Source: a bacterium | Lineage (GTDB): Bacteria; Myxococcota_A; UBA9042 | Direction: 5' to 3' | Assembly (NCBI GenBank): GCA_030425545.1 | Contig: JAUIAC010000001.1 | Location: 3,132-67,131, forward strand | DNA: 64,000 nucleotides | In this document: positions 20,201 through 62,576 of the stretch, one piece after another | Position numbering within the stretch: the first letter of the stretch is position 1 | How the letters are laid out: every line of letters starts with the position of its first letter | Made by a program: the position numbers and the translations under genes | The notes under the pieces: generated by a model | What the model was told of the DNA's origin: nothing | Databases searched by the model: none | What the model saw: only the letters and a program-made list of their open reading frames with translations

Positions 20201-20762
20201 TCTTGGGGTTGCAGGTCTCGCTGGCGCAGGGGCCACCCTCGCCCTTGCAGGTGACCACGGTCGCCGGGTTGACGCGGCACGACCACGGGAACTGATCCTT
20301 GTCGCAGAAGAGGGTGCCATTGCAGAGGTTGCCGTCCTCCTTGGCGGTGCAGTCGGCGCTGGTGACACAGCCGCAGAAGCTGAGCGATCCAGGCGTGCAG
20401 ACCCCCGCCTGGCAGGTGGCGGAGACCGTGCACGGGTCGCCGTCGTCGCACAGGGTGCCCTTGGGGCGCGGCGTGGTCTCGCACGTGCCCGTGGCCGCGA
20501 CGCAGCGCTCGTAGGTGCACGGCGTGTCCTTGCTCGGGTCACAGTCGCAGCTGGCCACGTCGAGCTTCGCGCTGCTGTCGGTCCCCCCTCCCGTGTCGAG
20601 CGGAGCGCCCGTGTCGAGGGCCGCGCCGGTGTCGGTGGCGCCGACGACGTCTCCGAGCGCGGCGTCCGCCCCGCCGGTCGGCGCCTCGTCTTCACATCCG
20701 GGCTGGGTCGCCAACATCACCAACAGCCCCCAAAACGGGGCCAACTGCCGTACGCGAGTCAT
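14214..20762 (-). CDS. giant (about 2180 aa) secreted (lipo)protein with two classes of Cys-rich repeats and two Trp-rich non-repeat domains
   Basis: Probable start ATG at 20762 gives MTRVRQLAPFWGLLVMLATQPGC... (signal peptide). There are about 9 copies of an approximately 80 aa unit (...C-x-SD-DC-x5-DGNLCNGTLYCD...C-x-NPATVV-CP...). Two approximately 400 aa W/G-rich non-repeat regions look beta-propeller-like. C-terminal CDDxNxCTxDxC repeats are of the same class as the neighbouring giant gene. A roughly 230 aa non-repeat domain sits at the C-terminus. Confidence 0.8.
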   Translation of the reverse strand: MTRVRQLAPFWGLLVMLATQPGCEDEAPTGGADAALGDVVGATDTGAALDTGAPLDTGGGTDSSAKLDVASCDCDPSKDTPCTYERCVAATGTCETTPRPKGTLCDDGDPCTVSATCQAGVCTPGSLSFCGCVTSADCTAKEDGNLCNGTLFCDKDQFPWSCRVNPATVVTCKGEGGPCASETCNPKTGSCATQTQPDATPCDDGDACTKNEACKGGVCEAKVNVCTCASDADCALVDDDNLCNGTLYCDTQHKGGDGKVAPKCKVNPATVVSCPDGNDTACAKAACQPKTGQCELVPTAGGTACDDGDKCTTGDACFIGKCVPGTNTCVCKSDAECEAKNGDGDLCNGTLFCNKVNGLCQVNPATVKVCPDTNDTACAQNTCKTLYETKAGKQVPKEAACTLVPVTDKSLTPCDDGDPCTKGDLCKGGKCAAGTYTCYCKSDKDCAGEEDGDQCNGTLFCNKLLGKCELNPATVVTCPSAGDNACRKNVCVKATGQCKMDTATYEGAACDDKSVCTKSDFCAAGSCVSGTYTCACKTDSDCVDVDGNKCNGVPYCDTSGALPVCKPNPASVVVCPKGDDSACIKNTCDPKTGACFLAELATQTGCDDGDACTSSDVCKGGECSGTNVCECQSDSDCLSKDDGDKCNGVPYCDTSTPGKHVCKPNPASVVVCPTAGDSACIKNTCDKKVGACYLAKLADKTLCDDGDKCTANDTCGNGKCVGGTFTCTCQSDSDCLAQDDGDLCNGVPYCDKSVPGKYACKPNPSSKVHCPQTANTQCLVNACNAKSGKCGLQPVTKGKACDDDNPCTAQDSCDSGACVGPVKADCADNDACTIDLCDKKLGCVHKQQNCADGNSCTVDKCHPKTGQCDFATVLGDGTACNADNDGCTVNDTCSKGVCKVGSTIKCTIVTKHCEKAVCKSEGQTAYKCLVVGDVDGAPCDDGASCTIGSLCKDGSCQPGKDKRLWTWSQGKTGEAYELNAADGSGGSAVVGGARHVLNQGAVSAAYAWVQALGKSGKPLWSFSHKATTPSDAVRVWTVHPLDAGGTLATGTTTVAGKPAVLFVRLDKAGKSVALREHGKWSGVEGRASALMPDKGAVVVGSAVDQGVTRVPWMRLSSSGHLSAAKLLPGLAGDVADAVDHTGANQTVVAGQSGKMAGDVRRGLLARVGATGAVLWRKNLAPNKASTDARLRAVVAQPSARLTAAGHTTDGSGTHYWLLRTDLQGKVLWQRVSPGAAAIHGMYLHGSGQLMVSGSAPDGSGGLDAWAMLTDPIGNPVWQQNFTQIDGAGAGSKPSVVLRGVHAMDGGLLLAGTRTAALQRAFVSRMSPWGQQTCESAGACATIAAAGCDDSDPCTLDRCDPKSGKCLHTTLEGLVCDPKDGCAVQGVCAAGKCKADPNGELWSRLYPWETGTEAWRVHAGVGAIRGTSDGGSVVFGHQQASQYAKYPYNGSLATVRRLDHTGSLVWQRKLTSPDPHSFKGTNKWLLERKNGEIWAGYQQQTSANGYGRSSFIVRTDVNGTALSTLNWKQKVGSTEGGIQAIAEAADGSLGYAIRYRFFRRNTSYAVVASKDFPAVGGAAAWPSRMAAASDGRWVAVGSGGGRGFATLLAPDGTAQWVVSPPGLTGITLRAARVDSGNDVRAAGWTTSTTAKRRLVVVGFAGKSGALQSVVTTAELNAGATVLAATGPQDGLAFVAKWGAGVNHKVRLFLTQPGGQPLLSRDLDAGNVASTWALGAGDDGVLIGGWAIAQDGKRKTTVARTGPWGLAPCTAAGLCKGVDPSDCDDKNACTTDSCAPGAGCTHTARSCDDGNACTTDACDKVKGCTHAPVVCDDKRSCTHNLCNVTAGGGEKAGCTFPLKPVCNDGSACTTDTCEADSSCKHTKVDCDDKSACTVDTCDKSAGCKHKSVTCNDHQPCTLDTCNKVKGCVFTALADGAVCKDGEVCVPLGPGICGGGACKVGGKAYVGCTSLSPASSCVAAKDAAGGKLDTFVGWTWLDEDKDGKNPKREWCDMKAGGFKRLYTNGVTRATNSWGPGSVMSCSGGLGQAKMWNPPAISLKYGSGTKTVTLNGALDVPQAHTAVRVRFRYHITTPNSTYKNWASAKIHLNGTLMFNGGLGGLPVVTGSSNPKAAGTCSPALGNMHALLADYQVAHTGPSVALSVQSTGMASTIWYAWPIGAVEVWVK

Positions 20763-20931
20763 CGGGTTCTCCAGCGCGAGTGAGGGGTGCCAAACGGTAC
20801 AACATCCTGGCGCGCCGCGAACGATCTGAAGCGCAGCGAGGCCCATTCCACCCGCCGAACAAACTCTCCCCACGACCCCGCCCGGTGGGTTAGGCTGCGG
20901 CGCAGCCCAGCTCGATCCAGGAGACACACGC

Positions 20932-22749
20932 ATGCCATCGACCATCGTTCGACTCCGTGACGCCCTCCGCTCTCGCCCCCGTCATCTACCGATCCTCGTC
21001 GCGTCGCTCGTCGTGCTGGCGACCGCTGGCGCCTGCGGCACGGACGCCGACAGCGGCAGCGGAGCCGACGCGGCCACGGAGAGCGACGCCGCGACGGCCG
21101 GCGCCGACACCGTGATCGCGGGAGAGGACGCGACCTCAAAAGGCGAGGGCACGCCGACCTGGCACGCGACCATCGCGCCGATCATCCAGAGCCGCTGCAG
21201 TTCCTGCCACGTCGAGGGCGGCATCGCCCCCTTCCGCCTCGACCGGGCCGAAGACTGGGAGATCATGGGCAAGCCCGCGGTGTCGGCGATGGAGTCCGGC
21301 CGCATGCCGCCGTGGCCCGCAGACCCGACCTGCGGCTCGTTCGCGCATCGCGGCGACATGCCCAAGGCCGAGATTGCGCAGGTCTCGGCCTGGGTCAACG
21401 GAGGTCGGCCCCTCGGTGATCCGAAGGACGCGCCCAAGCCCAAGGCGACCGCGCCGGTGACCTTCAAGCCCACACACTCGCTGCCCATGCCGGTCGCCTT
21501 CACGCCACCCAAAGACAACCTGGACACGTACCGGTGCTTTCTGCTCGACCTCGACACGTCGAAGGACCGCTTCATCAAGGCGACGCAGGTGGTCCCGGGG
21601 AGCGGCAAGCTGGTGCACCACGTGCTCGTGTACGCCCTGGAGGGAGACCACGTGACCAAGGCCGAGAAGGCCGACAAGGCGGAAGCCGGGCCGGGCTACA
21701 CCTGCTTCGGTGGACCGCTGCCAAACGAGAAGGAGAGCAGCCTGCTCGGGTTCACCACCGGCTTCCCGAACCAGCTCGCCGCGTGGGTGCCCGGGCTGCA
21801 GCCGTCGATCTTGGGCGACGACTACGCCATTCGGGTGAAGAAGGGCAGCCGGGTCGTCATGCAGGTGCACTACAACGTCCCGGCGGGGCAGACCGAAGCC
21901 GACCAGACCAAGCTCGAGCTGGTCGTGACCGACACGCCGCCCAAGCGGGTGCTGATCACGCGGCCGCTGGTGATCCGAGACCTCAACATCCCCGCTGGCG
22001 ACAAGGCCGCGTCGCACAGCGCGACCTACCGCTACTACGGGGACAGCGAGGTGCGCATCCACTCCATGACCGCCCACATGCACCTGCTCGGCTCACGCTT
22101 CGAGTCCGAGGTGCGGCGCAAAGACGGGACCACGGAGTGCGCCCTGCGGATCCCGGAGTGGGACTTCGCCTGGCAGCAGGCCTACCGCCGACCGCACGAC
22201 GATCCGATCGTGTTGAAAGACGGCGACGGCATGATGCTGCGGTGTGTCTACGACAACTCCGTCGCCAACCAGCCGCGGGTGAACGGCAAGCAGGTGACAC
22301 CCAAGAACGTGACCTGGGGCGACGGCACGCTGGACGAGATGTGCCTGCTCTACCTGACCATGAGCGAGCCCTACGAGGTGGGTCTGGCGGCCGACGCGCC
22401 CGCGTGTCAGGGCATCAGCGCGTGTCAGCCTGCGTGCGATCCCAAGAGCCCGACCACCTGCATCTACGACTGCGACAAGACCGAGCCCGTGTGTGGCACG
22501 TGCGCCATTGGTCAGCTGATCTCGTGCGCCGGGCTGGGCTGCGCGGCGTCGATGCTGGGCGCGCAGGACTGCCTGACCAACTGCCTGATCGGCTCGCTGA
22601 TGCTCGACGCCAACCCCGCGTCGTGCTTGACCACGCAGTGCAAGAGCAAGTGGGAGAAGGTGCAGGCCTGCCTCGACCCCAAGATCGCCAAGGGCGACTG
22701 CGACAAGCACCTCAAGACCTGTGGCGTGGCTTTTGGCGCGGGAAAGTAG
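20932..22749 (+). CDS. lipoprotein with N-terminal Planctomycete-type cytochrome c (PSCyt1-like, CxxCH) domain fused to a copper type II ascorbate-dependent monooxygenase-like (PHM/DBH-like) domain and a Cys-rich C-terminal tail
   Basis: Signal peptide with ...LVVLATAGAC G. The segment IAPIIQSRCSSCHVEGGIAPFRLD carries a CxxCH heme motif in a PSCyt1-like context. Cu-site-like motifs are present: VHHVLVY (HH), AHMHLLG (HxH) and GTLDEMCLLY (DEMC Met ligand). The C-terminal approximately 120 aa has about 16 Cys. Confidence 0.65.
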   Translation: MPSTIVRLRDALRSRPRHLPILVASLVVLATAGACGTDADSGSGADAATESDAATAGADTVIAGEDATSKGEGTPTWHATIAPIIQSRCSSCHVEGGIAPFRLDRAEDWEIMGKPAVSAMESGRMPPWPADPTCGSFAHRGDMPKAEIAQVSAWVNGGRPLGDPKDAPKPKATAPVTFKPTHSLPMPVAFTPPKDNLDTYRCFLLDLDTSKDRFIKATQVVPGSGKLVHHVLVYALEGDHVTKAEKADKAEAGPGYTCFGGPLPNEKESSLLGFTTGFPNQLAAWVPGLQPSILGDDYAIRVKKGSRVVMQVHYNVPAGQTEADQTKLELVVTDTPPKRVLITRPLVIRDLNIPAGDKAASHSATYRYYGDSEVRIHSMTAHMHLLGSRFESEVRRKDGTTECALRIPEWDFAWQQAYRRPHDDPIVLKDGDGMMLRCVYDNSVANQPRVNGKQVTPKNVTWGDGTLDEMCLLYLTMSEPYEVGLAADAPACQGISACQPACDPKSPTTCIYDCDKTEPVCGTCAIGQLISCAGLGCAASMLGAQDCLTNCLIGSLMLDANPASCLTTQCKSKWEKVQACLDPKIAKGDCDKHLKTCGVAFGAGK

Positions 22750-40504: not shown

Positions 40505-40601
40505 TGGCGGAAGTGCAGGGGAATCGAACCCCCCTGAGACGCTCGTCACGCCTCACACCGGTTTTGAAGACCGGGGAACTCACCAGAGCCCAAGCACCTC
40601 C
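40505..40601 (-). tRNA. selC: tRNA-Sec (selenocysteine, anticodon UCA)
   Basis: Reverse complement of 40505-40601. 8-bp acceptor stem GGAGGUGC/GCACUUCC, 6-bp D-stem, anticodon loop CU-UCA-AA, long variable arm (about 22 nt), T-arm GGGGG-UUCGAUU-CCCCU, discriminator G and encoded CCA. The 8/5 acceptor/T architecture and UCA anticodon are diagnostic of bacterial tRNA-Sec. Total 97 nt. Confidence 0.85.
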
Positions 40602-49692: not shown

Positions 49693-51141
49693 CTACCGAC
49701 CGCGACGGCGACCACGACGGCCCCTGCGGCGCTTCTTCTTCGGCGGCGGGGCGGCGGCCTTCTTCAGCAGGTCGGCGTACTTGTCTTCCAACGCCTGGGA
49801 CGCGAAACGGGTCGAGAGCGCGAGGCTGTAGCGCTCCTTGCAGAGCTTGGTGTCCCCAGCCTTGCAGGCGGTGTCGCCGTCGAGCTCCAACACCCCCGCG
49901 ATGGCCTTCAACGCGGCGTCGGCGTCCGCCCGATAGACGGACTCCTTGGGGATCAGCTGGTGCTGTCGAATCGCCTCGCCGTAGGTCTTGGCGGCGAAGG
50001 CGGCCTCGGCTTTGACGAAGCGCGCGCCCGCCTTCTTCTCCGCCGTGATCCGGTTGAGGGCCTTCGTCGGCTTGCTCTCGGTGGGATCGAGTCGACGCGC
50101 CTCTTTGTAGGCTCGCTCCGCCTTGTCCCACTGCCGACCGTTCATGGCCTCGCGCCCCTTCTCCAGCAGCTCGTCGTACTCCTTGAGGCGCTTGGCGCGC
50201 TTGGCCTCGAGCGCCGCGGCCTTGGCCTTCATGTCTGCCGCGCCCTCGCCCTCGTCGCGCTGGGCCTCGCTGGCCGAGATGGCAGGCGAGATCCACCTGT
50301 CGTAGGCGAAGCCGACGATGACGACGAGCCCCGTGATCGCCAGCACAATGACAGCCACGGCGGCGACCTGGGGCAGCATCGAGGAGCGCTCGGGTGGCTG
50401 TTGCTGCTCGTAGTAGTCGGGAAAGGCGTCCCCATAGGAGCTGATGGGCGCGGCCGGCCGGAACCCGGAGGCGCTCGCCGCATGCGGCGACGGTGCGGGC
50501 TCCTGCCACGGCTCAGGCACGGGCGCCTCGGTCTCTCCCTCCACCTGAAAGACAAAGCCCACCGTGCCAAAGCGCACCCGGTCGCCGTGGCGCAGGTCCT
50601 GCACGTCGATGCGGCGCTCGTTGACGTAGGTGCCGTTGGAGCTCCGCAGGTCCTCGACCACCACGCGGCCGTCGTCGTCCTGGGTGATCTTGGTGTGGAT
50701 ACGCGACACGGAGGGGTCGTTGATGACCAGCGTACAGTCTTTGCCGCGGCCGATCAGCGTCGTCGCCCGGTTCAGCTCGAAGGCCTCCGCGCCCCCGTGG
50801 ACGGGCACCAGGTGGGCGTAGGTGCTCGATCCCATCGGCCGCGCAAAGGCAGCGCCCTCGATGTGCAGGTAGAAGTCGCCGATGCGCACCTGTGCGCTGC
50901 GCGGCAGCTCGGTGACGTTGTAGATCCGCTTGCCGTTGAGCCAGATGCCATTGGCGGCGTTGAGATCCTCGATGTAGCAGCGCCCCTCGACGGTGAAGAG
51001 GCGGGCGTGCCGGCGAGAGACGTTGTCCGCCGCGAGGACGATGTCGCAGGACTGGCTGCGGCCGATGACGAACTCACCATCTTCAAACGAGTACTCGTCG
51101 ACGATCGCGCCGTACTTGTCCTCGATGATGAGCGTGAACAT
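49693..51141 (-). CDS. membrane-anchored protein with two N-terminal FHA domains and a C-terminal TPR-like domain
   Basis: Start MFTLIIEDKYG (ATG 51141). FHA 1 ...FVIGRSQSCDIVLAADNVSRRHARL...EDLNAANGIWLNG.... FHA 2 ...TLIGRGKDCTLVINDPSVSRIHTKI...DLRSSNGTYVNERRI.... One TM segment (AAVAVIVLAITGLVVIVGFAY). C-terminal helical domain and polybasic tail KKKRRRGRRGRRRGR. Confidence 0.75.
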   Translation of the reverse strand: MFTLIIEDKYGAIVDEYSFEDGEFVIGRSQSCDIVLAADNVSRRHARLFTVEGRCYIEDLNAANGIWLNGKRIYNVTELPRSAQVRIGDFYLHIEGAAFARPMGSSTYAHLVPVHGGAEAFELNRATTLIGRGKDCTLVINDPSVSRIHTKITQDDDGRVVVEDLRSSNGTYVNERRIDVQDLRHGDRVRFGTVGFVFQVEGETEAPVPEPWQEPAPSPHAASASGFRPAAPISSYGDAFPDYYEQQQPPERSSMLPQVAAVAVIVLAITGLVVIVGFAYDRWISPAISASEAQRDEGEGAADMKAKAAALEAKRAKRLKEYDELLEKGREAMNGRQWDKAERAYKEARRLDPTESKPTKALNRITAEKKAGARFVKAEAAFAAKTYGEAIRQHQLIPKESVYRADADAALKAIAGVLELDGDTACKAGDTKLCKERYSLALSTRFASQALEDKYADLLKKAAAPPPKKKRRRGRRGRRRGR

Positions 51142-51148
51142 GGGCTTC

Positions 51149-53218
51149 CTAGGCCTTGAGGTCGACCGCACGTAGGTCAGCGCCCTCGAGCGTCACCTCC
51201 ACGATGCGATCCAGGACTGCGCCGCCGTCCACGATGGAGAAGACACCGAGCACGTCGAGGGCCGCGACGGTGCGGGAGGCCGCGACCGCCATGGGCACAC
51301 CAGCGTAGCGGACCGCGTGCGCGTTGAGCGCGCGCTGCATGGCCTCCTCAGCGCTGCGGGCGTGGAGGAAGCCGAGCCAGGGCGCGATGCCGTCGCAGGC
51401 GTGGTCGATGAGACCGATGAGCTGCGCCGCGCCGCACTCCCCCAAGAGGATCCGGTCCGGCCGCAGCATGCGGGCCACGTGCAGCGCCTCGTCGCCCACC
51501 GCCGTGTCGAGGCGGATCACCTGCGGCTGCGACAGGTGCAGCCGCACACCTTGCTCCGTGACGACGATGCGCTCGGTGTCGGGGACCTCGCGCGCCAGCG
51601 CGTTGAGCACGGTGCGGCGGCCCGACCCCGCGGCGCCGACCAGCGCGATGCTCCGGCCCGCGAGCATGAGGTCTCGGAGCTGACCCGCGGCGTCCTCTGT
51701 GACCACGCCACGCCCCACCAGGTCGTCGAGCGAGGGCGCGTCACCCCGGGGCTTTCGAATCAACACCACCGGGCCGTTGGGGCACAGCGGGGGCCACGCC
51801 ACCCGCACCGTGGTGCCGTCCGCCAGGGTTCCGTCGACCCAGTGTCCAGCGCTGTCCGGCGCGCCGCTGGCTCGCACCAGGCGCTCCGCCGCCGACGAGA
51901 GCGCGGCCTGCCCGCTGAACCGGACCTCCGTCTCCTGGCGCTCGCTGTCCCGGTGGACCCAGATCTGCTCAGGGCCGTTGACCTCGATGGTCTCGACCGC
52001 GGCGTCGTCGAGCAGCGTCTCGAGCGGGCCGAGCCCGACCAGCTCGTAGATCAGATCGCGCTTGAGCCGGTCGAGGTCGAGCGTGTCCGGCAGGGAGGCG
52101 TGCTGACCGTCGACAAAGGCCACGACGCGCGCCTCCATCTCTGCCCACTCGGAGTCGCTCAGCTGTGCAGCGTCCCCGGTGAACGACCCGGCCAGCTCTT
52201 CACTGGCCTGCGTGTGGAGCAGGGCGAGCGCGTCGTAGTGCCCGCTAGGAGGGACAAAGGCGTCGCCCTCGGCGGTGCTCATCACCGGCATCGGGGCGGC
52301 GACGTCTGGCATGGACAGGTCGAGAGACAGATCCGGCGCCTGAACGCCCGAGACCGCGGCAGCGGCGGCGTCGAGGGCCGCGCCGAGCCCGTCGACCGGT
52401 CCAGTCATGCGATCGTCCACCGCCTCCATGGCCGCGACAGGGTCTGCCGCGACGACCGCCGCGTCGCCCACCATCGGAGCGGCCGCCTCACGGCGGGCCG
52501 CGATCTCGGCCATGGCGTCGCTCGCGGCGTCACCGAGCTGCGACAGGGTCGACTCGTCGAGCGCGTCCAAGGCCTCAAGCGGGGCGTCGGCCTCGCCGTC
52601 CAGGCCTGGACCGCCCTGGTCGGCCACAGGGGCGGCGAAGGGGTCGTCCGCACCGAAGGCGCCGCTGGCGAGGGCGTCGTCTGCGCTAGCGGCGTCGAAG
52701 GCCTCCGCGGCGAAGGCGTCGTCTCCAAAGGCGTCGTCGCCGAACGCGTCGGCGGAGAATTCGTCGGCGCCGAAGCCCGACGCGTCGAAGTCCGCGCCAC
52801 CGTCGGCCGACTGCGCCGGCTGGCTTGACGAGGAGACCGCGCGGCCACTCTCAGACGTCGCTGCGTCGAGGCCCAGGTCGTCGCCCAGCGGCGCCGCGTC
52901 GTCTGCTGCAGTGCCGTCGTTGGGCTGACCCAGGTCGAAGAACTGCATCACAAAGTCGCCCAGATAGGCCTTGTCTTCCGACCCCACCTCGACCGGCGTC
53001 GTGATGCGATGCCCGTTGACGTAGGTGCCGTTGGTGCTGCCGAGATCTTCGACCACGAACCGGGGGCCGTGCACGCGCACCAGGGCGTGACGCTTCGAGA
53101 TGTTCTGCTTGGGCAAGATGACGTCGTTGCCCTTGACCCGACCGATCATGATCTCGGGCTTGTCGAAGTGGAAGGTGTACACCTGCCCACTCTTCTCACG
53201 GATGGTGACGCTGAACAT
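51149..53218 (-). CDS. FHA domain protein fused to a CpaF/TadA (VirB11-like) secretion-ATPase fold with degenerate catalytic motifs
   Basis: N-terminal FHA (...IMIGRVKGNDVILPKQNISKRHALV...DLGSTNGTYVNGHRI...). Long acidic linker (about 200 aa, D/A/E-rich). C-terminal approximately 330 aa aligns by eye to CpaF. The Walker A position reads GAAGSGRRT instead of GSGKTT. The Walker B/Glu position reads IVVTEQGVRL instead of IEDAAEL. The conserved RMRPDRIIVGE block is retained (MLRPDRILLGE). Confidence 0.7.
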   Translation of the reverse strand: MFSVTIREKSGQVYTFHFDKPEIMIGRVKGNDVILPKQNISKRHALVRVHGPRFVVEDLGSTNGTYVNGHRITTPVEVGSEDKAYLGDFVMQFFDLGQPNDGTAADDAAPLGDDLGLDAATSESGRAVSSSSQPAQSADGGADFDASGFGADEFSADAFGDDAFGDDAFAAEAFDAASADDALASGAFGADDPFAAPVADQGGPGLDGEADAPLEALDALDESTLSQLGDAASDAMAEIAARREAAAPMVGDAAVVAADPVAAMEAVDDRMTGPVDGLGAALDAAAAAVSGVQAPDLSLDLSMPDVAAPMPVMSTAEGDAFVPPSGHYDALALLHTQASEELAGSFTGDAAQLSDSEWAEMEARVVAFVDGQHASLPDTLDLDRLKRDLIYELVGLGPLETLLDDAAVETIEVNGPEQIWVHRDSERQETEVRFSGQAALSSAAERLVRASGAPDSAGHWVDGTLADGTTVRVAWPPLCPNGPVVLIRKPRGDAPSLDDLVGRGVVTEDAAGQLRDLMLAGRSIALVGAAGSGRRTVLNALAREVPDTERIVVTEQGVRLHLSQPQVIRLDTAVGDEALHVARMLRPDRILLGECGAAQLIGLIDHACDGIAPWLGFLHARSAEEAMQRALNAHAVRYAGVPMAVAASRTVAALDVLGVFSIVDGGAVLDRIVEVTLEGADLRAVDLKA

Positions 53219-53274
53219 CCAACCTCCGGAGCCGCAGGACGGATCGCCGGACTAGAGCTGTCATCGACAGCGCG

Positions 53275-53315
53275 GCTGAAAAAAGGCCGTCGCCGCCCCC
53301 GATTTCGGGTCTGGA
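53275..53315 (-). terminator. possible intrinsic terminator downstream of thiE (imperfect GC hairpin followed by a U-run on the minus strand)
   Basis: + strand A6 (53269-53274) followed by GGCCGTCGCCGCCCCCGATTTCGGGTCTGGAGCGGCGCC. On the minus strand this is a hairpin (CCCGA/TCGGG core plus outer GC arms) then UUUUUU. Imperfect stem. Confidence 0.25.
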
Positions 53316-53463
53316 GCGGCGCCTATGGTCGGCAAGGGCAATCGTGCCGTCAAGGCGCAGTCCCCTGCCCTGGTCGGCGGTCGTCCCGGGTGCAACCGGG
53401 CGGTGAGAGCCACATTGGCGCGGCGTGGGACAGCCGGGGTGGCCGACCCGGCGCCGGGGGCGC

Positions 53464-54081
53464 TCAGCGGGGCGCGCGCCGCAGCCATCGCGCGACCGAC
53501 TCGGCGCCACGCAGCGCGGCGACGCCAGCAGCGCCCTCGGCCAACGCGAGGGGCGCCGTGCGCGCGTCGACCCCTCCGAGCGCGACGACGCGACCTGGAA
53601 ACCGGCGCGTGAGCGTACCGAGCCCCGCCAGCGTGTAGGGCGTCGCCCCGGGCTTGCTCAGGGTCGGCCACACGGGCGACACCACAGCGAGGTCGGCCCC
53701 GCCAGCCAGCGCTGCGGCGACGGCGGCCTGCGAGTGGCACGCCCGGAGGACGCGAGCCCCGGCCGGGGCAAACTGGTCCGCCGGTTCCGCGCGCTCGGGC
53801 AACCACAGCCACGCCAGGCGGCGATCGCGCGCCACGCTGCACACCTGCGCTGCAGTCGCGCCCCGCTCTCGCCCGCCGACGTTCAGCCCGACCACGGGTC
53901 CCCCGGGGACCTCGGCGAGGGCACACAGCTCCGCCAGCGGCCCGCGCCAGTCCGTGGCGTGCGCGTGCGGCATCCGCAGCACCAAGGCCACGTCGCCACC
54001 GCAGCCGAGGTCCGCGATCCGCGCGGCGCTGGCGAGCGAGGGCCCGCTGCCGTCGCACAAGGCAAAGAGCCGCGGTGTCAC
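53464..54081 (-). CDS. thiE: thiamine-phosphate synthase
   Basis: 205 aa. The GTG start overlaps the thiG stop. C-terminal ...[44 protein letters not shown]... matches the ThiE phosphate-binding region. Confidence 0.75.
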
Positions 54082-54890
54082 GCGATCAAGCCGTCGAGGG
54101 GCGACGACGCGGTGGCGTAGAGCTTTCGCGGCATCCGCCCCGCGCGAAAGGCGAGCCGTCCGGCAGACGTCGCCAGCCGCATCGCGCGGGCCATCGCCAC
54201 CGGATCGTCTGCTGCCGCGATGGCGCTGTTCATCAGCACCGCGGCACAGCCAAGCTCCAGCGCCACGGCGGCGTCAGACGCGGTGCCGATGCCAGCGTCG
54301 ACCACCACCGGGACCGCGACCTCCTCAAGGATCAGCCGCAGGTTGTGTGGATTGCGCACGCCGAGCCCGCTGCCGATGGGCGCGGCCAGCGGCATCACCG
54401 CGGCGACGCCAGCGTCTTCGAGCCGCCGACACACGACCACGTCGTCGCCGCAGTAGGCCATGACCACGAAGCCCTCCTCGGCGAGCATCGCCGCGGCACG
54501 CACGGTCTCCTCGTTGTCGGGGTAGAGCGTCTTCGCGCAGCCGATCACCTCGAGCTTCAGCAGATCGCCCATGCCCGCCTCGCGAGCCAGGCGCGCCGTG
54601 CGCACGGCGTCCTCGGCGGTGTAGCACCCCGCCGTGTTGGGCAGGAGCGTGTGGCGGTCGAGGTCGATGGCGTCGAGCACGCTGGGCCCCTGCCCGCTGA
54701 GATCGACCCGCCGCAGCGCCACCGTGACCAGCTCTGCCCCGCTCTCGGCGATGGCGCGGCGGGCCTGCGCGATGTCGGCGTAGCGCCCCGTGCCCACGAG
54801 CAGGCGCGAGCGAAAGGTGTGCGGTCCGACCTGCCAGGTGTCGTCGTCGTCGACGCGGGTCGCTGCCATGACGTCGAGTTCTGCGGGCAT
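54078..54890 (-). CDS. thiG: thiazole synthase
   Basis: Start [10 protein letters not shown] (ATG 54890, GGAG RBS). ...[32 protein letters not shown]... and ...[61 protein letters not shown]... are canonical ThiG. Confidence 0.9.
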
Positions 54891-55075
54891 GGAGGGCTCC
54901 TGGTCTCGCGGGCCCCAGGACAGGGCGCCGCGAGGGACGGTGGCGTGATTCGCGGGCGGCGGCAAGCCAGGGGGCCGACGGGGCCCTACCTGGCTTGGTT
55001 GCGAGCCGCGCCGGGCGCCCCTTATGCTCGCGCGCCCGCGCCGCCGGTCGGTCGGTCACCCAGGAGGAGCCCCCC

Positions 55076-56278
55076 ATGCCCGTGGTCGCGTCCCCAGAGC
55101 CTCAGCCCCCGGCGGGCTCGACGTCGACGACGCTGTCGGGGCTGAGGGTGGCGCTGGTCCACGACTGGCTGGTGACCCTACGCGGCGGAGAGCGTGTGCT
55201 CGACGCGTTCTGTGAGCTCTTTCCCGACGCGGCCGTGCACACCCTGGTCCGGCGTCCTGGCGTGGCCACGCCGCGCATCGAGGCCATGCGCCACGTCAGC
55301 AGCTTTGTCGACCGCGTCCCTGGCGCACGACAGCGCCACCGCTGGCTCCTGCCGCTGTACCCCTCGGCGGTGGAGCGCCTGCCGGTCGGCGACTGCGACC
55401 TGATCCTGTCGTCGAGCCACTGCGTCGCCAAGGCTGTGATTCCGGGGCCTGGGGCCGTGCACGTGTGCTACAGCCACACGCCGGTGCGTTATGCCTGGGA
55501 CCGCACAGACGACTACATCGACGGCACCAACGCCGCGGTGCGGCTGGCGCGCCCCGCCCTGAGCGCGGCGGCCACCTGGCTGCGCGGCTACGACCTGGAC
55601 ACCGTCGGTCGGGTGGACCACTTCGTCGCCAACAGCCACAACACGGCCGGCAAGATCCGCGCGTTCTACGGGCGCGAGGCGGCGGTTGTCGCGCCGCCAG
55701 TGGAGACCGAGCGCTTCGCGGCTCTGGAGCGCACCCACGGCGGCTACGACCTCGTGCTCTCCGGCCTGGTCCCCTACAAGCGCGTCGACCTCGCCGTGCA
55801 GGCCTACGCTCACCTGCCCGACCGACGCCTGGTGGTGGTCGGAGACGGACCGGAGTTCGAGCGCATCAGCCGGCTGGCGCCCCCCAACGTGGAGCTCCGA
55901 GGCCGCGTGCCGGAGTCGGAGCTCGCCGACTGGTACCGCGGGGCCGAGCTGCTGGTCTTCGCCGGTGAAGAGGACTTCGGCATCGTGCCGCTCGAAGCGC
56001 AGGCCTGCGGCGTGCCGGTCGTCGCCTTCGGCCGCGGCGGGGCCCTGGAGAGCGTGGTCGAGGGGGAGACCGGGGTCTTCTTCCACGAGCTGACCCCGCA
56101 GGCCCTCGCCGACGCGGTGCGGGCCCTGGTGGCCGCCGAGATCTCCGAGTCCGCCTGCCGCGCCAACGCGGCGCGCTTTCGTCGCGAGGTGTTCCTCGAC
56201 CGCATGCGCGTTGAGCTGAGCCGCGCCATCGAGGCCCACTCCGGGTTGGCGCGCCGGCGGCGGCTGGCGCAGCTGTGA
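55076..56278 (+). CDS. glycosyltransferase family 4 (GT-B, group 1)
   Basis: ATG 55076 with AGGAGG RBS. ...LRVALVHDWLVTLRGGERVL... N-terminal domain, then the C-terminal ...EDFGIVPLEAQACGVPVVAFGRGGALESVVEGETGVFF... EX7E-type motif. Confidence 0.8.
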   Translation: MPVVASPEPQPPAGSTSTTLSGLRVALVHDWLVTLRGGERVLDAFCELFPDAAVHTLVRRPGVATPRIEAMRHVSSFVDRVPGARQRHRWLLPLYPSAVERLPVGDCDLILSSSHCVAKAVIPGPGAVHVCYSHTPVRYAWDRTDDYIDGTNAAVRLARPALSAAATWLRGYDLDTVGRVDHFVANSHNTAGKIRAFYGREAAVVAPPVETERFAALERTHGGYDLVLSGLVPYKRVDLAVQAYAHLPDRRLVVVGDGPEFERISRLAPPNVELRGRVPESELADWYRGAELLVFAGEEDFGIVPLEAQACGVPVVAFGRGGALESVVEGETGVFFHELTPQALADAVRALVAAEISESACRANAARFRREVFLDRMRVELSRAIEAHSGLARRRRLAQL

Positions 56279-56333
56279 ACGCCAGGCGAGCGCCCGCAGC
56301 GCCGATGGTGATCCCGTCCGCACAGGCCCAGCC

Positions 56334-57632
56334 GTGAGCGGCGGGGGACGCTGGGCGCTCTCCGGGCGCATCCGCCGGAACATCGCGTGGAAGCTCGCGG
56401 GCACGGCGGCCGAGAAGAGCCTGCGCCTCGGCCTGGTGGTCACGGCCGCCCGCCTGCTGGGCCCCGAGGCCTGGGGTCGCTACACCTACGCCCTCACGCT
56501 GGCGCTCCTCTTCGTGCAGCTCACCGACCTTGGGCTCTCGCTCTTCCTCTCGCGTGAGGTGGCGCGCGCGGGGCGGGTCGACCGCGACTTTGTCGGTCAG
56601 GTGCTGGCGCTGAAGCTCGTGCTGGCGGCCGGCTACCTGGTCCTGCTGACCGGCCTCGCGCTGGGCCACCTGGACGAGCCGGTGATCGCCGCCGCGCTCG
56701 CGCTGAGCGCCGTGATCGCCCTGGGCCAGACCGCGCTGGAGGCAGCGCTGCACGTCTTCCGTGGCGTCCAGGACCTCAAGCTCGAGGCGCGCGCCGGGAC
56801 CGTGATGGCCGCGATTCAGGTCACGCTGGGCGGGCTCACGCTCGCGGTCGTGTGGGCGCTCGAGCTGTCCACCGATCAGGCGACCCTGGCCTACGTCGCG
56901 GCGCTCGCCGTCGCTGGCATCCTGGGCGCTGGCTACAGCTGGTCCATGGTTCGACCCATCGTCGTGCCGCGGGTTCGGCTGACGCGCGCCATGGTCCAGC
57001 GCTTCCGCGTCGAGGTGCTGCCGTTGGGCATCGCGATCGTCGCGAGCCTCATCTACTACAAGATCGACGTGCCGATGATCCGCGCCCTCCATGGCGACCT
57101 CGAGACCGGGTACTACACCGCGGGCTACAAGCTGCTGGAGGTCCTCGCGATCGTGCCGAGCGTGCTGATGGCCGCGACCTTCCCGGCCCTCAGCGAGACC
57201 GTGGACCGCGACCCGGCGCGTGCGCGCGCGCTGCACGGAGCGACCCTGCGGTGGCTGCTTCTGGCTGGGGGTGCCGCGGCGCTGGTGATCACGGTCGGCG
57301 CACCCTGGATCATCGCGCTGCTCTACGGCGATCGCTTCGACGGTGCGGTCGCGATCCTGCCGGCCCTGGCGCCGAGCGTCGTGCTCATGTTCGTCAACTA
57401 CCTCCAGACCCACATGTTGGTGGCGCTGGGGCTGGTGCGTCAGCAGATGCTCGTCTCGCTCGGCCTCGTGGCGGTCAACGTGGGGCTCAACGCCGTGTGG
57501 ATCCCGCTCTGGGGTGGCCGGGGCGCCGCGTACGCCACCGCGGTCACCGAGCTCGCGCTGCTCGTGGCGATCACCCCCATGGTCAGCCGCGCGCTGAAGC
57601 AGCGCAGCGCGTCGCTGCAAGGGGGCGTCTGA
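56334..57632 (+). CDS. polysaccharide/O-unit flippase (Wzx, MOP/PST family)
   Basis: GTG 56334. 432 aa with about 12 TM segments and the typical PST-family N-terminus (...NIAWKLAGTAAEKSLRLGLVVTAARLLGPEAWGRYTYALTL...). Confidence 0.65.
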   Translation: MSGGGRWALSGRIRRNIAWKLAGTAAEKSLRLGLVVTAARLLGPEAWGRYTYALTLALLFVQLTDLGLSLFLSREVARAGRVDRDFVGQVLALKLVLAAGYLVLLTGLALGHLDEPVIAAALALSAVIALGQTALEAALHVFRGVQDLKLEARAGTVMAAIQVTLGGLTLAVVWALELSTDQATLAYVAALAVAGILGAGYSWSMVRPIVVPRVRLTRAMVQRFRVEVLPLGIAIVASLIYYKIDVPMIRALHGDLETGYYTAGYKLLEVLAIVPSVLMAATFPALSETVDRDPARARALHGATLRWLLLAGGAAALVITVGAPWIIALLYGDRFDGAVAILPALAPSVVLMFVNYLQTHMLVALGLVRQQMLVSLGLVAVNVGLNAVWIPLWGGRGAAYATAVTELALLVAITPMVSRALKQRSASLQGGV

Positions 57633-59344
57633 TGCTGTCGCGCTGGCCACCTGCGCTGGCGAGGTCGAAGCAGTCCGCGCTCTCAGCCGCGGCCTGGTCC
57701 GTCGCCGCCGTGACCGCGCTCGGCCCGCTGGAGCTGCGCCACGCCATGGTCCCGCTCTTTGGGCTGCAGGTCTCGTCGGTGGAGGTGCTGGCCGGTGTCG
57801 CCCTGCTCTGCAACGGCTGGGCGGCGTTCACCCTACGCCGCGATCCGCTGGTCCGCCGCGGCGTACGTCGCCCGATCGCGCTCGCGCTGGTGCTGTGGGC
57901 CCTCGTCCACGTGGCGAGCGCGCTGTGGTCGGACGCGCCCGCGTACAGCCTCAAGTTCGGTCTGCGCGTGGTCGGCGGGATCGGTCTGGCCGTGAGCTGC
58001 GCCACCTTCGGCGCCCTTCGCCGCTACCGTCGCACCGTGGCCGTTGGCGTGATGAGCGGGCTGCTGCTGGTGACGCTGATCGCCGGGGTCGAGCGCGCGC
58101 TGGGCCAGGCGAGCGAGCCCTTCTTGCAGTGGTTTCGCGACGAGCCGACGTGGATGCTGGGCGAACCTCGCCTGTCGACTGTGTTTTATCACGCCAACAC
58201 GCTCGCGGCCTTCCTCGAGCTCACCTTCCCCTTTGTCCTGGTGGCGGCGTGCCTGCCCGTGGTCTCGCGCCGCCAACGGGTCGCCATGGCTCTGTGGGCC
58301 TTCGCGTGCGCGGCCATGCTCAGCCTGACCTACTCGCGGGCGGGCTTGCTCGCCGGGGTGCTCGCGAGCCTGTGCCTCGGCTGGTCTGCCCGCCGCGTGC
58401 TCGACCGCGGGCGCTTGGCGCGGGCGGCCTTCGCCTTCGCGGCGCTCCTGTCGGTCGCCTACCTGGGCAACCCCGACATGCGCGCGCGGCTCGGCTTCGG
58501 CAAGCGGGAGTACCGTGTGGACTATGCCTTCGACGGGCCGTGTGAGGGCGGACGGGCGGCGACGGTGCAGGTCCCGGTCACCGTCACCAATGAGGGCGAG
58601 TGGCCGCTGTCGGACCGACACGCGCCAGGCGAGCTCGGGTGGCTGATCTGGCCGCGCGAGGGCAAGCCCGATCCCCGCGCGTTCTCGTATCGCAAGCTGC
58701 CGGTGCTCGACAGAGGCGCGACCTTTCAGACCACGCTGGACGTGCACTTGCCTGACATCGCAGGCCCTTGGGAGCTCGTCTTGGACATCCGGCGCAAGGG
58801 GGTCATCTGGCTGAGCGCGACCGGCACGGAGGTCGGCCGCGCGACGTGCGTCGTCACGCCCGGGGCGGACGACCCGAAGGGGACCCCGCACACGCTGTCG
58901 CGCGCCGCGATTCAGCTACAGACCCGGCCTCTCGAGCTGGCACGCAAGCACTATTGGCAGGCCGCGCTCCGCCTCTTCGAAGCGCGACCCTGGCTCGGTC
59001 ACGGCGCCGACCGCTTTCGCTATCAATACCGGGGCTGGGTGCCCGACAAGGCCTGGGACGGCAGGGCGCGTGCCCACTCACTCGTCCTCGAGACCGCCGC
59101 AGACCTCGGGCTGCTCGGCCTCCTCGCCCTCGGCTTGCTCCTCGGCACGCTCGCGCCCATCTTCGTCACGCGACTCCTCGCGGGAGCGCCGCAGAGCCCC
59201 ATCGCGCTGGCGGCCACGGTGGCCTGCCTGGGCTTTGGCCTCCACAGCATGGTCGACTATTTCCTGGCCTACACACAGATCCTGCTGGTCGCCTGGCCCG
59301 TCCTCGGGCTGGCCGCAGCGCAGGCTCCGGAGAGCACGTCATGA
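57632..59344 (+). CDS. O-antigen ligase/polymerase family (Wzy_C) membrane protein with an inserted approximately 130 aa soluble domain
   Basis: The ATG 57632 overlaps the flippase stop. Multi-TM. The Wzy_C-like block ...[24 protein letters not shown]... is followed by a hydrophilic insert (...[28 protein letters not shown]...[23 protein letters not shown]...) and then ...[19 protein letters not shown].... Confidence 0.65.
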
Positions 59345-59550
59345 GCACGGCGAACCTGGTCCTCAACGGCGAGCCTCACGAGATCCCAGAGGGGACCACC
59401 GTCGCCGGCCTGCTCGCGTCGCTGGACATCGACGTGTCGCGTGTCGCCGTGGAGCGCAACCGCGTGGTGATTCGGCGCAAGGACCACGGGTCCGAGGTGC
59501 TCGCCGAGGGTGACGAGGTGGAGATCGTCACCTTCGTCGGCGGCGGCTGA
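59341..59550 (+). CDS. thiS: ThiS-like sulfur carrier protein (ubiquitin-fold, C-terminal GG)
   Basis: 69 aa, [69 protein letters not shown]. The ThiS pattern and terminal Gly-Gly are present. The ATG overlaps the TGA of the ligase gene (ATGA). Confidence 0.8.
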
Positions 59551-59601
59551 GCCCGAGAAGCGGTGGGCGTGGCCGCAAGAACGGAGAAAAGGCGCAGTCT
59601 G

Positions 59602-60186
59602 CTAGCGCCCCCAAGGCCACAAGATGCGCAGCCAGAGCGGCCTCGGCGGTCGCTTGGCCACGTCGTAGGCGGCCACGTCGGCGACATGGAGCGCCGTGTC
59701 GCTCTGGAGCACGGCCTGGGCCAGCCCGTCGAGCGGCCGCCCGAGGGAGATGGGCAGGACCGCCAGCTGAGGCGCGCGCACGCCCTTGTGGGTCCGCAGC
59801 GTGGTGTCGACCGCCGCCTTCACCTCCGCTGCCAGCGCGCTGAGCAGCGCCTCCGGGTCCACACCGCGGCGTAGGAACACGACGAGGACCTCGCTGGGCT
59901 CCTGCCCGGGAAAGGCGATCACCGGGACGCAAGCGAAGGCGATCTCATGGCGGGCCTGGACCACGTCCCTGAGCGCGAGCTCCACCGGCTCCGGCAAGGG
60001 GCGCTGCGGCGCTCCAACCTGAATCTCACTGCCCGCACCGATGGTGTTCTGCTGTCCCAAGGTCTCTCCTGTCCAAGCGCCGGGGTGAAGCGCCGTCGGC
60101 CCGCCCCTGAAGCGGCCGCCCCCGAACTGGCCGTCCAGCGGCGCACGACGAGCCCGAGCGAACGCACGCTGGCACGCGCTGTGCAC
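59602..60186 (-). CDS. hypothetical protein (start uncertain, probably downstream of 60186)
   Basis: High-GC3 frame. The C-terminal approximately 130 aa (...VIAFPGQEPSEVLVVFLRRGVDPEALLSALAAEVKAAVDT...) look protein-like. No motif recognised. Confidence 0.3.
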   Translation of the reverse strand: MHSACQRAFARARRAPLDGQFGGGRFRGGPTALHPGAWTGETLGQQNTIGAGSEIQVGAPQRPLPEPVELALRDVVQARHEIAFACVPVIAFPGQEPSEVLVVFLRRGVDPEALLSALAAEVKAAVDTTLRTHKGVRAPQLAVLPISLGRPLDGLAQAVLQSDTALHVADVAAYDVAKRPPRPLWLRILWPWGR

Positions 60187-60523
60187 CTCATCAGGCCCGG
60201 GCGGACCGTACAGGACCGCGTCTTTTCTCGCGAGAGTTCAAGGGTTCTCGCATGTTCACTGACCCACCATGCATCGCAGGGCACCCGCGCAGCATCCACC
60301 CGGTGTGGAGTAGCGACTGTCCAACCCGGGGGCGCTTTTCTTGCTCGCCCGAGGTCAGATGCTAGATCCGTTTGTGATCCTCGGCGCTTGCGACCGGGGT
60401 CACGAGACCCTCGGGCGGAGGCCTCGGGTGGAGCACGCGTGCTCCAACTCGCGCCTGCTCGCCGCGGGACCTCCAGCGCCAGCTGCGCACGAGAGCGGCG
60501 GGACAGTCAGAAGGAGAGAGCGA

Positions 60524-61843
60524 ATGCAGAGGCCGCTGCGCGTCGTCGACGTCAACAACTTCTTCTCCGCCACCGGCGGCGGCGTGCGCCGCTACCACCT
60601 GGAGAAGCTGCAGGCCCTCAGCGAAGATCCGAACCTCGAGTACCACGTCGTCGTTCCCAGCGACCGGACCGAGGTCGAGCGCTACGGCCGCGCGACGATC
60701 CACCACCTGCCTGCGACCAACGCCCTCGGCTCCGGCTACCGCTTCCTGGTCAACCCACTCCGTCTGCGGCGCCTGCTCAAGCGGATTCAGCCCGACGTCG
60801 TCGAGGTCGGGAGCCCCTACGTGCTGCCGGACATCGTGCGCTTCGCCGCGCGTGGGCTGGACTGTGCCATCGTCGGCTTCTGGCACGCCCACTACCCGGT
60901 CGCCTACGCCCATCGTCCGCTGTCGCGGCGCTCGCCCAAGCTGGCGAAGGCCGCAGAGCGCATGGCGTGGTGGTGGGCCCGTCGCACCTACGGGCGCTTT
61001 GACACGACGCTCGCAGCGGCAGACTGCGTGCGCTCGACCCTCGAGGCTGAGGGCGTCCCCGGCGTGAGCTACACGCCCCTGGGCGTGGACCTGGCGCTCT
61101 TCACCCCGACCCGCCGCGACACCGCGCTGCGGCGCACCTGGGGCGCCGGCGACCGCGACGTGGTCATGGCCTTTCCGCACCGACTCTGCGAGGAGAAGAA
61201 CCTCAGCGCGATGGTCGACGCCTACGAGATCGTCCGCGAAGCCCGCGGCGAGCGCGTGCTCCTGGTGGTCGCGGGACGCGGCCCCGACGAGGCGTTGGTG
61301 CAGGATCTGGCCGCCCGCTACCCAGGGGACGTGCACTACCTCGGGTACCTGCCGCGTCGCGAAGACATGGCGCGGCTGCTGGCCTCGGTCGACATCGTCG
61401 CGGCCCTGTCGCCGACGGAGACCTTCGGGCTGTCGGCCGCAGAGGCCATGGCTGCAGGCAACGCGTTGATCGGCAGCGAGGAGCTGTCCGTCGGCGAGAT
61501 GCTGCGGGAGTCCCGCGCCGGTGTGCCGGTGGCCGACGGCGACCCCCGAGCCATCGCCGAGGCGTGGTTGGAGCTCCTACAGCCGGGCCGGGCGCGGCTG
61601 CTCGGCGCGCGGGCGCACACCTTCGCGAACCGACACTTCTCCTGGGCGCGGACCTTCGAGCGGATCGTCGGTGTCTACGAGGCCACCACGCACCGTTCGC
61701 AGGCGGACGAGGTCGCGCCCGTGGCTGCCACGAGCGGCGGCTGGGGCGCCGGCGTCGCGCGGCTGCTCGCTGACGACGAGCAGAAAGGCGCGCGGCCGGA
61801 GCGTCGCACACGCAAAATTGGCGGCGGCAGGCGGTCGGCCTGA
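60524..61843 (+). CDS. glycosyltransferase family 4 (GT-B)
   Basis: ATG 60524 with AGGAGA RBS. ...LRVVDVNNFFSATGGGVRRY... N-terminal domain and C-terminal ...ETFGLSAAEAMAAGNALIGSEELSVGEML... GT4 motif. Confidence 0.8.
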   Translation: MQRPLRVVDVNNFFSATGGGVRRYHLEKLQALSEDPNLEYHVVVPSDRTEVERYGRATIHHLPATNALGSGYRFLVNPLRLRRLLKRIQPDVVEVGSPYVLPDIVRFAARGLDCAIVGFWHAHYPVAYAHRPLSRRSPKLAKAAERMAWWWARRTYGRFDTTLAAADCVRSTLEAEGVPGVSYTPLGVDLALFTPTRRDTALRRTWGAGDRDVVMAFPHRLCEEKNLSAMVDAYEIVREARGERVLLVVAGRGPDEALVQDLAARYPGDVHYLGYLPRREDMARLLASVDIVAALSPTETFGLSAAEAMAAGNALIGSEELSVGEMLRESRAGVPVADGDPRAIAEAWLELLQPGRARLLGARAHTFANRHFSWARTFERIVGVYEATTHRSQADEVAPVAATSGGWGAGVARLLADDEQKGARPERRTRKIGGGRRSA

Positions 61844-61970: not shown

Positions 61971-62576
61971 ATGATGAAGAAGGCCAGCATCAAGCTGATC
62001 GCCCTGATGACCATCGCGATGATGGCCGTGGCATGTAGCAGCGACGAAGGCAACACCGGCAACACGGCGACCGACAGCGGCGCGTCGAGCGCCGACTCCA
62101 CAGGCGGCGGCTCGGACGCCACCACCGGCTCGGACGCCACCACCGGCTCCGACGCCACCACCGGCTCCGACGCGGGCGGCACCACGGACGCGGGCGGCGC
62201 GACGACCTCGTTCGGCAAGGGCTGCACCGCTGCCGACGACCAGGCCTTCAACAAGATGCTCTCGGACGACAGCAAGAAGGGCAGCGAGTTCACCGGCGTG
62301 GTGAAGGACTGCACGCTGACCAAGGGCTGCATGGCCAAGAGCGGCGACAAGGCGCAGCAGGACTGCATCCGTGACTGCATCCTCGACGCGCAGATCGCCA
62401 AGGACGGCAAGCTCAGCAGCGACTGCGGCGCATGCTACGGCACCTACAAGGGCTGGTGCGGCGCCAAGAAGTGCATCTCCAAGTGCGCGGTCGACGCCGG
62501 CAGCCAGGGCTGCCAGGACTGCCTCAAGGACAACTGCGACGGCGACTTCGCGCTGTGCCTCGCTGGCGACAAGTAG
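61971..62576 (+). CDS. small secreted Cys-rich lipoprotein with (TTGSDA)n linker
   Basis: AGGAG RBS. MMKKASIKLIALMTIAMMAVAC SSDEG gives the lipobox. Repeat linker TGSDATTGSDATTGSDA, then an approximately 120 aa module with about 16 Cys. Confidence 0.65.
   Translation: MMKKASIKLIALMTIAMMAVACSSDEGNTGNTATDSGASSADSTGGGSDATTGSDATTGSDATTGSDAGGTTDAGGATTSFGKGCTAADDQAFNKMLSDDSKKGSEFTGVVKDCTLTKGCMAKSGDKAQQDCIRDCILDAQIAKDGKLSSDCGACYGTYKGWCGAKKCISKCAVDAGSQGCQDCLKDNCDGDFALCLAGDK

Follow-up and report, generated by a model that had tools for sequence, protein, structure and literature searches.

Separation of thiS from thiG in an uncultured Myxococcota lineage, most probably by inversion within an ancestral Wzy-thiS-thiG-thiE array

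In the survey of Iyer, Burroughs and Aravind (2006, PMC1779556), in which polysaccharide genes go unmentioned (0 occurrences), about 80% of the bacterial cases of the sulfur-carrier protein ThiS show coupling to ThiG, and about 20% coupling to ThiF. Here we analysed a stretch of 64,000 nucleotides from an uncultured member of the Myxococcota_A (lineage UBA9042; GenBank assembly GCA_030425545.1, contig JAUIAC010000001.1, positions 3,132 to 67,131 of the forward strand), referred to as the window, in which 4.45 kb separate thiS from thiG, the two genes are on different strands, and thiS closes a GT4-Wzx-Wzy block at its 3' end. The closest described system is the canonical thiS-thiG(-thiE) operon, as in Bacillus subtilis (1TYG) and Pseudomonas, which encodes the same proteins and shows the same overlap of thiG with the TMP-TENI gene, and of which the order is kept in those relatives of the window that have a collinear arrangement. 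The window departs from this operon not only in the position of thiS, but also in having no thiamine pyrophosphate (TPP) riboswitch and a strongly diverged thiE-like gene. We consider it very probable that thiS was split from thiG by inversion within an ancestral Wzy-thiS-thiG-thiE array, and that thiS is an ordinary thiamine gene.

Two further systems were used for comparison. To our knowledge, the BexX 2-thiosugar system is the only route by which a ThiS/ThiG pair can feed a glycan; in this system from Amycolatopsis (4N6E), sugar chemistry is likewise combined with an enzyme of the ThiG fold and a carrier of the ThiS type. The WaaL/Wzy_C family (7TPG) shares with the Wzy protein of the window a Wzy_C domain, a predicted WaaL-like fold and a place in a Wzx-containing glycan cluster, while the window protein differs by a predicted CARDB-like insert of about 110 aa and by belonging to a tight, sharply delimited family. 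The window has a GC content of about 70%, and its genes and closest relatives assign it to the uncultured Myxococcota. The locus has the following features:

49693-53218, minus strand: unit of an FHA-T2SSE ATPase gene (51149-53218) and a double-FHA protein gene (49693-51171), assigned by Pfam
53464-54081, minus strand: divergent thiE-like gene of the TMP-TENI family with a GTG start (Pfam TMP-TENI, 51.7 bits)
54078-54890, minus strand: thiG, thiazole synthase, 270 aa (Pfam ThiG, 354 bits; independent 270-aa gene call)
54891-55075, no strand: 185-bp divergent spacer between thiG and GT4a, read from the sequence as the probable inversion junction
54999-55028, plus strand: candidate sigma-70-like promoter TTGCGA-N18-TATGCT upstream of GT4a (pattern scan; motif conserved in relatives)
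55076-56278, plus strand: GT4a, GT4 glycosyltransferase of 400 aa, first gene of the plus-strand block (Pfam Glycos_transf_1 and Glyco_transf_4)
56334-57632, plus strand: Wzx-type flippase, Polysacc_synt (Pfam PF01943, 89.8 bits; weak match to NCBIfam Wzx_EPS)
57632-59344, plus strand: membrane protein of 570 aa with Wzy_C domain and predicted WaaL fold (Pfam Wzy_C, 38.1 bits; AlphaFold2 model)
59341-59550, plus strand: thiS, sulfur-carrier protein, 69 aa (Pfam ThiS, 60 bits; TIGR01683, 78.3 bits)
59602-60186, minus strand: hyp194, conserved hypothetical protein of 194 aa, convergent on thiS, at the distal end of the putatively inverted block
60341-61843, plus strand: GT4b, second GT4 glycosyltransferase (Pfam), a syntenic flank marker outside the putatively inverted block

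The ATG of thiG is at 54890 according to the 270-aa gene call; the open reading frame (ORF) in the original prediction, which a model had made from the sequence alone, extended to 54965. That prediction had described the local layout correctly in that the thiG stop codon and the GTG start codon of the thiE-like gene share a GTGA (54078-54081), that no thiS precedes thiG, and that a 69-aa ThiS ending in VTFVGGG is encoded about 4.5 kb away on the opposite strand. The place before thiG is taken by the 185-bp divergent spacer to GT4a. Junction sequence and Pfam also agree with its statement that the thiS ATG (59341-59343) lies over the TGA (59342-59344) of the Wzy/ligase gene closing the GT4-Wzx-Wzy cluster, giving an ATGA junction. 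We also noted that thiG and GT4a have a near-identical 18-nt ribosome binding site and start context (54884-54901 and 55065-55082, AGGAGCCC[T/C]CCATGCCCG, 17/18 positions), which is not conserved in the related locus L082 and so is probably a coincidence.

Gene order in other genomes was compared in two surveys, the first being anchored on ThiG and covering 80 loci from a genome-collection scan, with tblastn searches using the window proteins. In 72/80 of these ThiG loci thiS directly precedes thiG on the same strand, and in 6/80 there is no thiS in the locus; thiS apart from thiG is likewise known as a minority condition from the earlier survey (PMC1779556), but the partner here is a Wzy_C membrane protein instead of thiF or a cysteine or sulfur gene, and the overlap is conserved over a deep clade. 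The two closest relatives, L002 (ThiG 87% identical) and L003 (72%), share the architecture of the window, including the hyp194, GT4b and FHA genes. In both, thiS is a separate ORF which ends in GGG, is preceded by AAGGAGG and has its ATG 20-23 nt inside the Wzy coding region, and therefore the ORF at 59341 is conserved as a gene of its own, and not merely as the 3' region of the ligase gene, as the original prediction had allowed.

The second survey was anchored on Wzy and combined 12 contexts looked up among the Wzy family with those of the window, L002 and L003, giving 14 contexts. The inverted, window-like arrangement was found in 6/14 (the window, L002, L003, L082, L083 and L084) and the collinear arrangement in 5/14 (P0051, L085, P0034, L087 and L089), while one context (L088, 1/14) has Wzy-thiS, with no thiG in the 5 kb that remain to the contig end, and Wzx-Wzy without thiS was found in 2/14 (L086 and P0057). 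The layout of the window is hence not peculiar to it, which answers the call for a comparison of gene order that came with the original prediction. All genes of the collinear form are on a single strand, in the order [adh_short-FAD_binding_4]-GT4a-(Bac_transf)-Wzx-Wzy-thiS-thiG-TMP_TENI-FHA/T2SSE-FHA. The thiS start overlaps the 3' end of Wzy in all 12 contexts that contain thiS (including L083, where thiS is present at 11707-11910 but was not called by the annotation), by 4 to about 70 nt and with an ATGA in six of them, and the C-terminal tail of Wzy varies in length and sequence across the relatives. Homologues of GT4b flank the block in inverted and collinear genomes, and hyp194 homologues adjoin thiS in L002, L082, L084 and L088; in L083 the homologue is turned round. 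The hyp194 protein matched nothing in Pfam or NCBIfam, and was considered as a truncated remnant of a gene of about 579 aa of the collinear genomes, to which it has no similarity. The Haliangiales outgroups, which are metagenome-assembled genomes (MAGs), have a stand-alone thiS-thiG(-thiE) without Wzy, downstream of a divergent Crp-family regulator and alanine racemase. As two genomes have the Wzy block but no thiS, and the outgroups have thiS-thiG but no Wzy, the two are not obligatorily associated. Searching the literature gave no relevant report of a link between thiS and Wzy, with the results being swamped by the English word 'this'.

The collinear form had been predicted from the layout of the window before it was found in relatives. 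Comparing the window with the collinear L087, both flanks are preserved (hyp201-GT4b on one side, and thiG-thiE-FHA/T2SSE-FHA2-GidA-hyp515-OmpA on the other side) and only [GT4a-Wzx-Wzy-thiS] is flipped, while in inverted and collinear genomes alike the unit of the FHA-T2SSE ATPase and double-FHA genes is directly downstream of the thiE-like gene. Neighbour-joining trees of concatenated GT4a, Wzx and Wzy separated L085, L086, L087 and L089 from all other genomes with 100% bootstrap support, and with all collinear genomes being set apart from the inverted ones by this branch, a single inversion on it suffices. The adjacency of thiS and thiG is taken to be ancestral because the Haliangiales outgroups have stand-alone thiS-thiG, and because it is also the bacterial norm. 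In the ancestor, thiS-thiG-thiE(-like) would have directly followed GT4-(Bac_transf)-Wzx-Wzy in the same orientation, and the overlap of the thiS start with the Wzy stop would have existed by then. One inversion of about 4.5 kb would then have flipped [GT4a-Wzx-Wzy-thiS], with breakpoints in the short thiS-thiG spacer and upstream of GT4a, after which thiS would have remained joined to Wzy, and thiG-thiE would have become divergent from GT4a across the new 185-bp spacer. The Wzy-thiS pair would persist because a breakpoint in the overlap would destroy a gene, and the thiS-thiG junction would be breakable because its spacer of 12 to about 170 nt tolerates a breakpoint. The split of thiS from thiG in the original prediction is thus real, and what it had missed is the cause, an inversion of the collinear array.

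By sequence, thiS in the window is an ordinary sulfur-carrier gene of the thiazole branch of thiamine synthesis, orthologous to the thiG-adjacent thiS of the collinear relatives. With the NCBIfam equivalog model TIGR01683 (cutoff 37.45) its protein reaches 78.3 bits, residues 7-69 being aligned to profile positions 2-64 of 64, and the closest relatives in the PDB are all ThiS proteins, with 1TYG_B (B. subtilis, in complex with ThiG) being the best match, followed by 2K5P, 2LEK and 2CU3. The C-terminal Gly-Gly of ThiS is the site of adenylation and thiocarboxylation, and the window protein has this end (VTFVGGG directly followed by the stop codon), as have the ThiS proteins of L002, L003, L082-L084 and L087 with VTFVGGG-type endings. 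In some ThiS orthologues (L085, 11730-11954; L007; L008) the Gly-Gly is followed by one more residue (GGGQ, GGGS), and these would need C-terminal trimming before activation. Accelerated or relaxed evolution of ThiS after the split was considered and rejected: for the inverted clade, the divergence of ThiS relative to ThiG is 0.55, against a background of 0.61 ± 0.05 (n = 353) at a ThiG identity of 0.8-0.9, with other bins being similar. This ratio is within the background range and gives no indication that selection on ThiS has been relaxed or redirected. Within the 64-kb window there is no second ThiS/MoaD-like gene, and a Pfam search of the window ORFs found no thiF/moeB, thiO/thiH, rhodanese or JAB genes; genomic coupling of thiS to thiG or thiF is absent from the window, and present for its orthologues in the collinear L085, L087 and L089.

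The ThiG of the window is by score a true thiazole synthase, far nearer to ThiG than to BexX. Its Pfam match of 354 bits spans profile positions 2-247 of 247, it is about 60% identical to pseudomonad ThiG, and its best match in the PDB is the Pseudomonas aeruginosa ThiG 1WV2 (313.7 bits) with the KLEV motif of the Schiff-base lysine aligned, versus just 147 bits for the thiosugar synthase BexX (4N6E). With these scores, and with no dedicated thiosugar genes present, membership in a BexX-type thiosugar system was rejected. The adjoining gene had been called thiE in the original prediction, which is right insofar as the protein is a TMP-TENI family member (51.7 bits versus a Pfam cutoff of 27), but it is divergent and fails the ThiE equivalog model TIGR00693 (30.4 bits versus a cutoff of 145.1, with residues 106-191 alone matching). 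Its profile matches are confined to the C-terminal, phosphate-binding half, a profile of its clade scores similarly against Mycobacterium tuberculosis ThiE (3O63, 56 bits) and TenI (1YAD, 49 bits), and the clade alignment shows another residue where the N-terminal R-x-K motif of ThiE has its lysine. The thiE-like protein is also fast-evolving, with 36-47% identity between genomes of which the ThiG proteins are 85-87% identical, and the Haliangiales outgroup L009 has a normal ThiE (143 bits) at the same position. From these comparisons it may be a ThiE, a TenI-like tautomerase or something else.

With regard to expression, a loose sigma-70 pattern (TTGNNN-N16-19-TANNNT) was searched for on both strands of the 64-kb window, and matched only once, at 54999-55028 on the plus strand, 48 nt upstream of the GT4a ATG and followed by CGCGCGCC. 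L082, L084 and L003 have the same motif and spacing, followed by a CGCGCC block, before GT4a, and L002 has them at a greater distance from that gene, whereas in none of the inverted-type loci do the 400 nt preceding thiS contain a sigma-70-like motif. Downstream of thiS there is no intrinsic terminator or structured RNA (z-score -0.27, terminator scan at background level). The thiS gene is therefore probably the fourth and last gene of a GT4a-Wzx-Wzy operon, transcribed from the promoter candidate at 54999-55028, as far as can be judged from sequence. It would be translated by coupling to Wzy, and ThiS-thiocarboxylate would serve ThiG in trans, while thiG-thiE would be transcribed from a promoter newly arisen in the 185-bp spacer. 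Searches for the TPP riboswitch (RF00059) gave no match at the Rfam gathering threshold in the window, none at E ≤ 10 in 53000-60400, and none in the loci of 15 relatives, including the outgroup thiS-thiG loci and the Wzy-linked loci; with none in any of these relatives, the locus would never have been riboswitch-controlled, and splitting it would have cost no regulation. From the overlap in 12/12 genomes, the conserved promoter motif before GT4a and the lack of one before thiS, we infer the transcriptional tie of thiS to the polysaccharide genes that the original prediction had put forward, whereas nothing points to a functional tie between thiamine and polysaccharide synthesis, with two Wzy family members being without thiS and the outgroup thiS-thiG being without Wzy.

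The Wzy protein has a Wzy_C domain scoring 38.1 bits versus a Pfam cutoff of 31.7, matched no NCBIfam model, and gave an AlphaFold2 model with a mean predicted local distance difference test score (pLDDT) of 90.5, for which the top fold match was WaaL (7TPG_B, E-value 4.3e-7, template modelling score 0.61 on the target). Since the Pfam Wzy_C family includes both ligase (WaaL) and polymerase (Wzy) activities, this WaaL-like predicted fold is compatible with either of the two. Residues ~296-408 make up an insert of about 110 aa, which is predicted to form a CARDB-like beta-sandwich resembling 2KL6. A sulfur-related domain hidden in the insert was rejected, as the insert has no Pfam match and this fold, and the Wzy protein contains no E1 (activating enzyme), rhodanese or JAB module. 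The family comprises about 60 sequences with 39-64% identity, beyond which similarity falls sharply to below 28%, and seems to be confined to uncultured Myxococcota. Of the other glycan genes, GT4b has a full-length, sub-threshold match to N-acetylglucosaminyl-phosphatidylglycerol synthase (196 bits versus a cutoff of 480), which suggests that it is a glycolipid synthase and not a polysaccharide enzyme. In collinear relatives an adh_short and FAD_binding_4 pair, which we take to resemble the DprE2/DprE1-type epimerases, joins the front of the GT4 operon (L085, 4384-6581; L087, 5304-7495), and the block in the window is without this pair and without a Bac_transf initiating transferase.

Some observations weigh against the reconstruction given above. 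The distal breakpoint of the inversion is not clean, as the collinear genomes have an esterase, a hypothetical protein of about 579 aa and the DprE1/DprE2-like genes upstream of GT4a, and the window has the unrelated 194-aa gene in their place. With this, and with the orientation of hyp194 and the esterase varying among inverted genomes, further small local rearrangements must have occurred. Nor is the flipped block bounded by inverted repeats, its ends sharing only GC-rich matches at chance level. The co-transcription and translational coupling of thiS are read from the DNA sequence alone, and as myxobacterial promoters are often non-canonical, the lack of a recognisable promoter before thiS is weak evidence. 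It may thus be asked whether the adjacency of Wzy and thiS is purely historical, with thiS being driven, independently of the polysaccharide operon, by a promoter inside the 3' region of Wzy. The variable C-terminal tail of Wzy could hold regulatory sequence, the Myxococcota use many non-sigma-70 promoters that are invisible to the scans, and the spacer of about 130-170 nt before thiG in the collinear L087 can be taken as showing that there are internal promoters in the array. We nevertheless regard this as unlikely, since the conserved sigma-70-like motif in inverted-type loci is the one upstream of GT4a and not in the 400 nt before thiS, and the start/stop overlap kept in 12/12 genomes is a hallmark of operonic coupling.

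Selection for the Wzy-thiS overlap itself is very improbable, be it because the supply of ThiS, together with ThiG, is deliberately co-expressed with the Wzx/Wzy glycan pathway, or because of a second, glycan-linked role as sulfur donor. Speculative reasons would be that ThiS also donates sulfur to a sugar or lipid-linked intermediate, or that thiazole synthesis is balanced with the supply of undecaprenyl phosphate, with both drawing on 1-deoxy-D-xylulose 5-phosphate (DXP); DXP synthase needs TPP. The aberrant thiE-like protein would then be a repurposed side-pathway enzyme. There is a similarly slight, marginally smaller chance that ThiS, alone or with ThiG, has been recruited as a BexX-like sulfur donor for a sugar or polysaccharide, or as a ubiquitin-like tag. 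There is precedent in a ThiG homologue which makes 2-thioglucose with borrowed carriers (PMC4784017), the Wzy-thiS linkage persists over three configurations and outlasts the thiS-thiG linkage, and the neighbouring thiE-like protein fails its equivalog model. All of this has to be set against a ThiG that matches P. aeruginosa ThiG far better than BexX, a ThiS that passes the thiS equivalog model without accelerated divergence, a Wzy insert predicted to be a beta-sandwich and not a sulfur-transfer domain, two Wzy family members without thiS (L086 and P0057), and the absence of E1-like (ThiF/MoeB), rhodanese or JAB/MPN genes from the window and from ±10 kb around 12 related contexts. The other sulfur-transfer or tagging role that the original prediction had offered is hence unsupported, thiS being the orthologue of the thiG-adjacent gene. 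As to an assembly or binning artefact, the source organism is uncultured and most of the relatives are MAGs, but a chimeric contig can practically be dismissed: the identical arrangement is found on an independent Logan contig, the same architecture is found in five other independent assemblies with 44-64% Wzy identity, and the coding signal, measured as the G+C content of third codon positions (GC3), is continuous across the junctions, with the GC3 of thiS (0.91) being similar to that of neighbouring genes. We thus retain the inversion of a collinear array with an ordinary thiS.

Several other features of the window were noted. Downstream of GT4b, in the relatives as well, is a gene for a 201-aa Cys-rich protein (61971-62576, plus strand) with a signal-peptide-like N-terminus and GSDATT repeats, for which no family match was found. 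A selenocysteine tRNA gene (40509-40601, minus strand; Rfam tRNA-Sec, 76.9 bits) adjoins a NUDIX hydrolase gene, and the ORFs scanned in the window yielded no sel genes. The ORF at 20830-22749 (plus strand) matches both domains of the copper type II ascorbate-dependent monooxygenases (PHM/DBH-like), which are probably unusual in bacteria. Finally, there are very large ORFs of 2256 aa (14214-20981, minus strand) and of 1294 aa (8188-12072, plus strand), the latter having no match in Pfam.

Taken together, thiS in this locus is a canonical family member in a rearranged, lineage-specific context, which is conserved across a deep lineage of uncultured Myxococcota, and does not represent new biology. 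For annotation and genome mining this is a caution, as an apparent orphan ubiquitin-fold protein with a Gly-Gly end in a polysaccharide cluster is here a housekeeping ThiS, and not a new tagging or thio-glycan system. It also illustrates that a start/stop overlap can make the junction between Wzy and thiS more durable than the functionally meaningful junction between thiS and thiG. If the co-transcription is true, thiazole synthesis in these bacteria would depend on the promoter of an envelope-glycan operon, which would be a modest regulatory curiosity.

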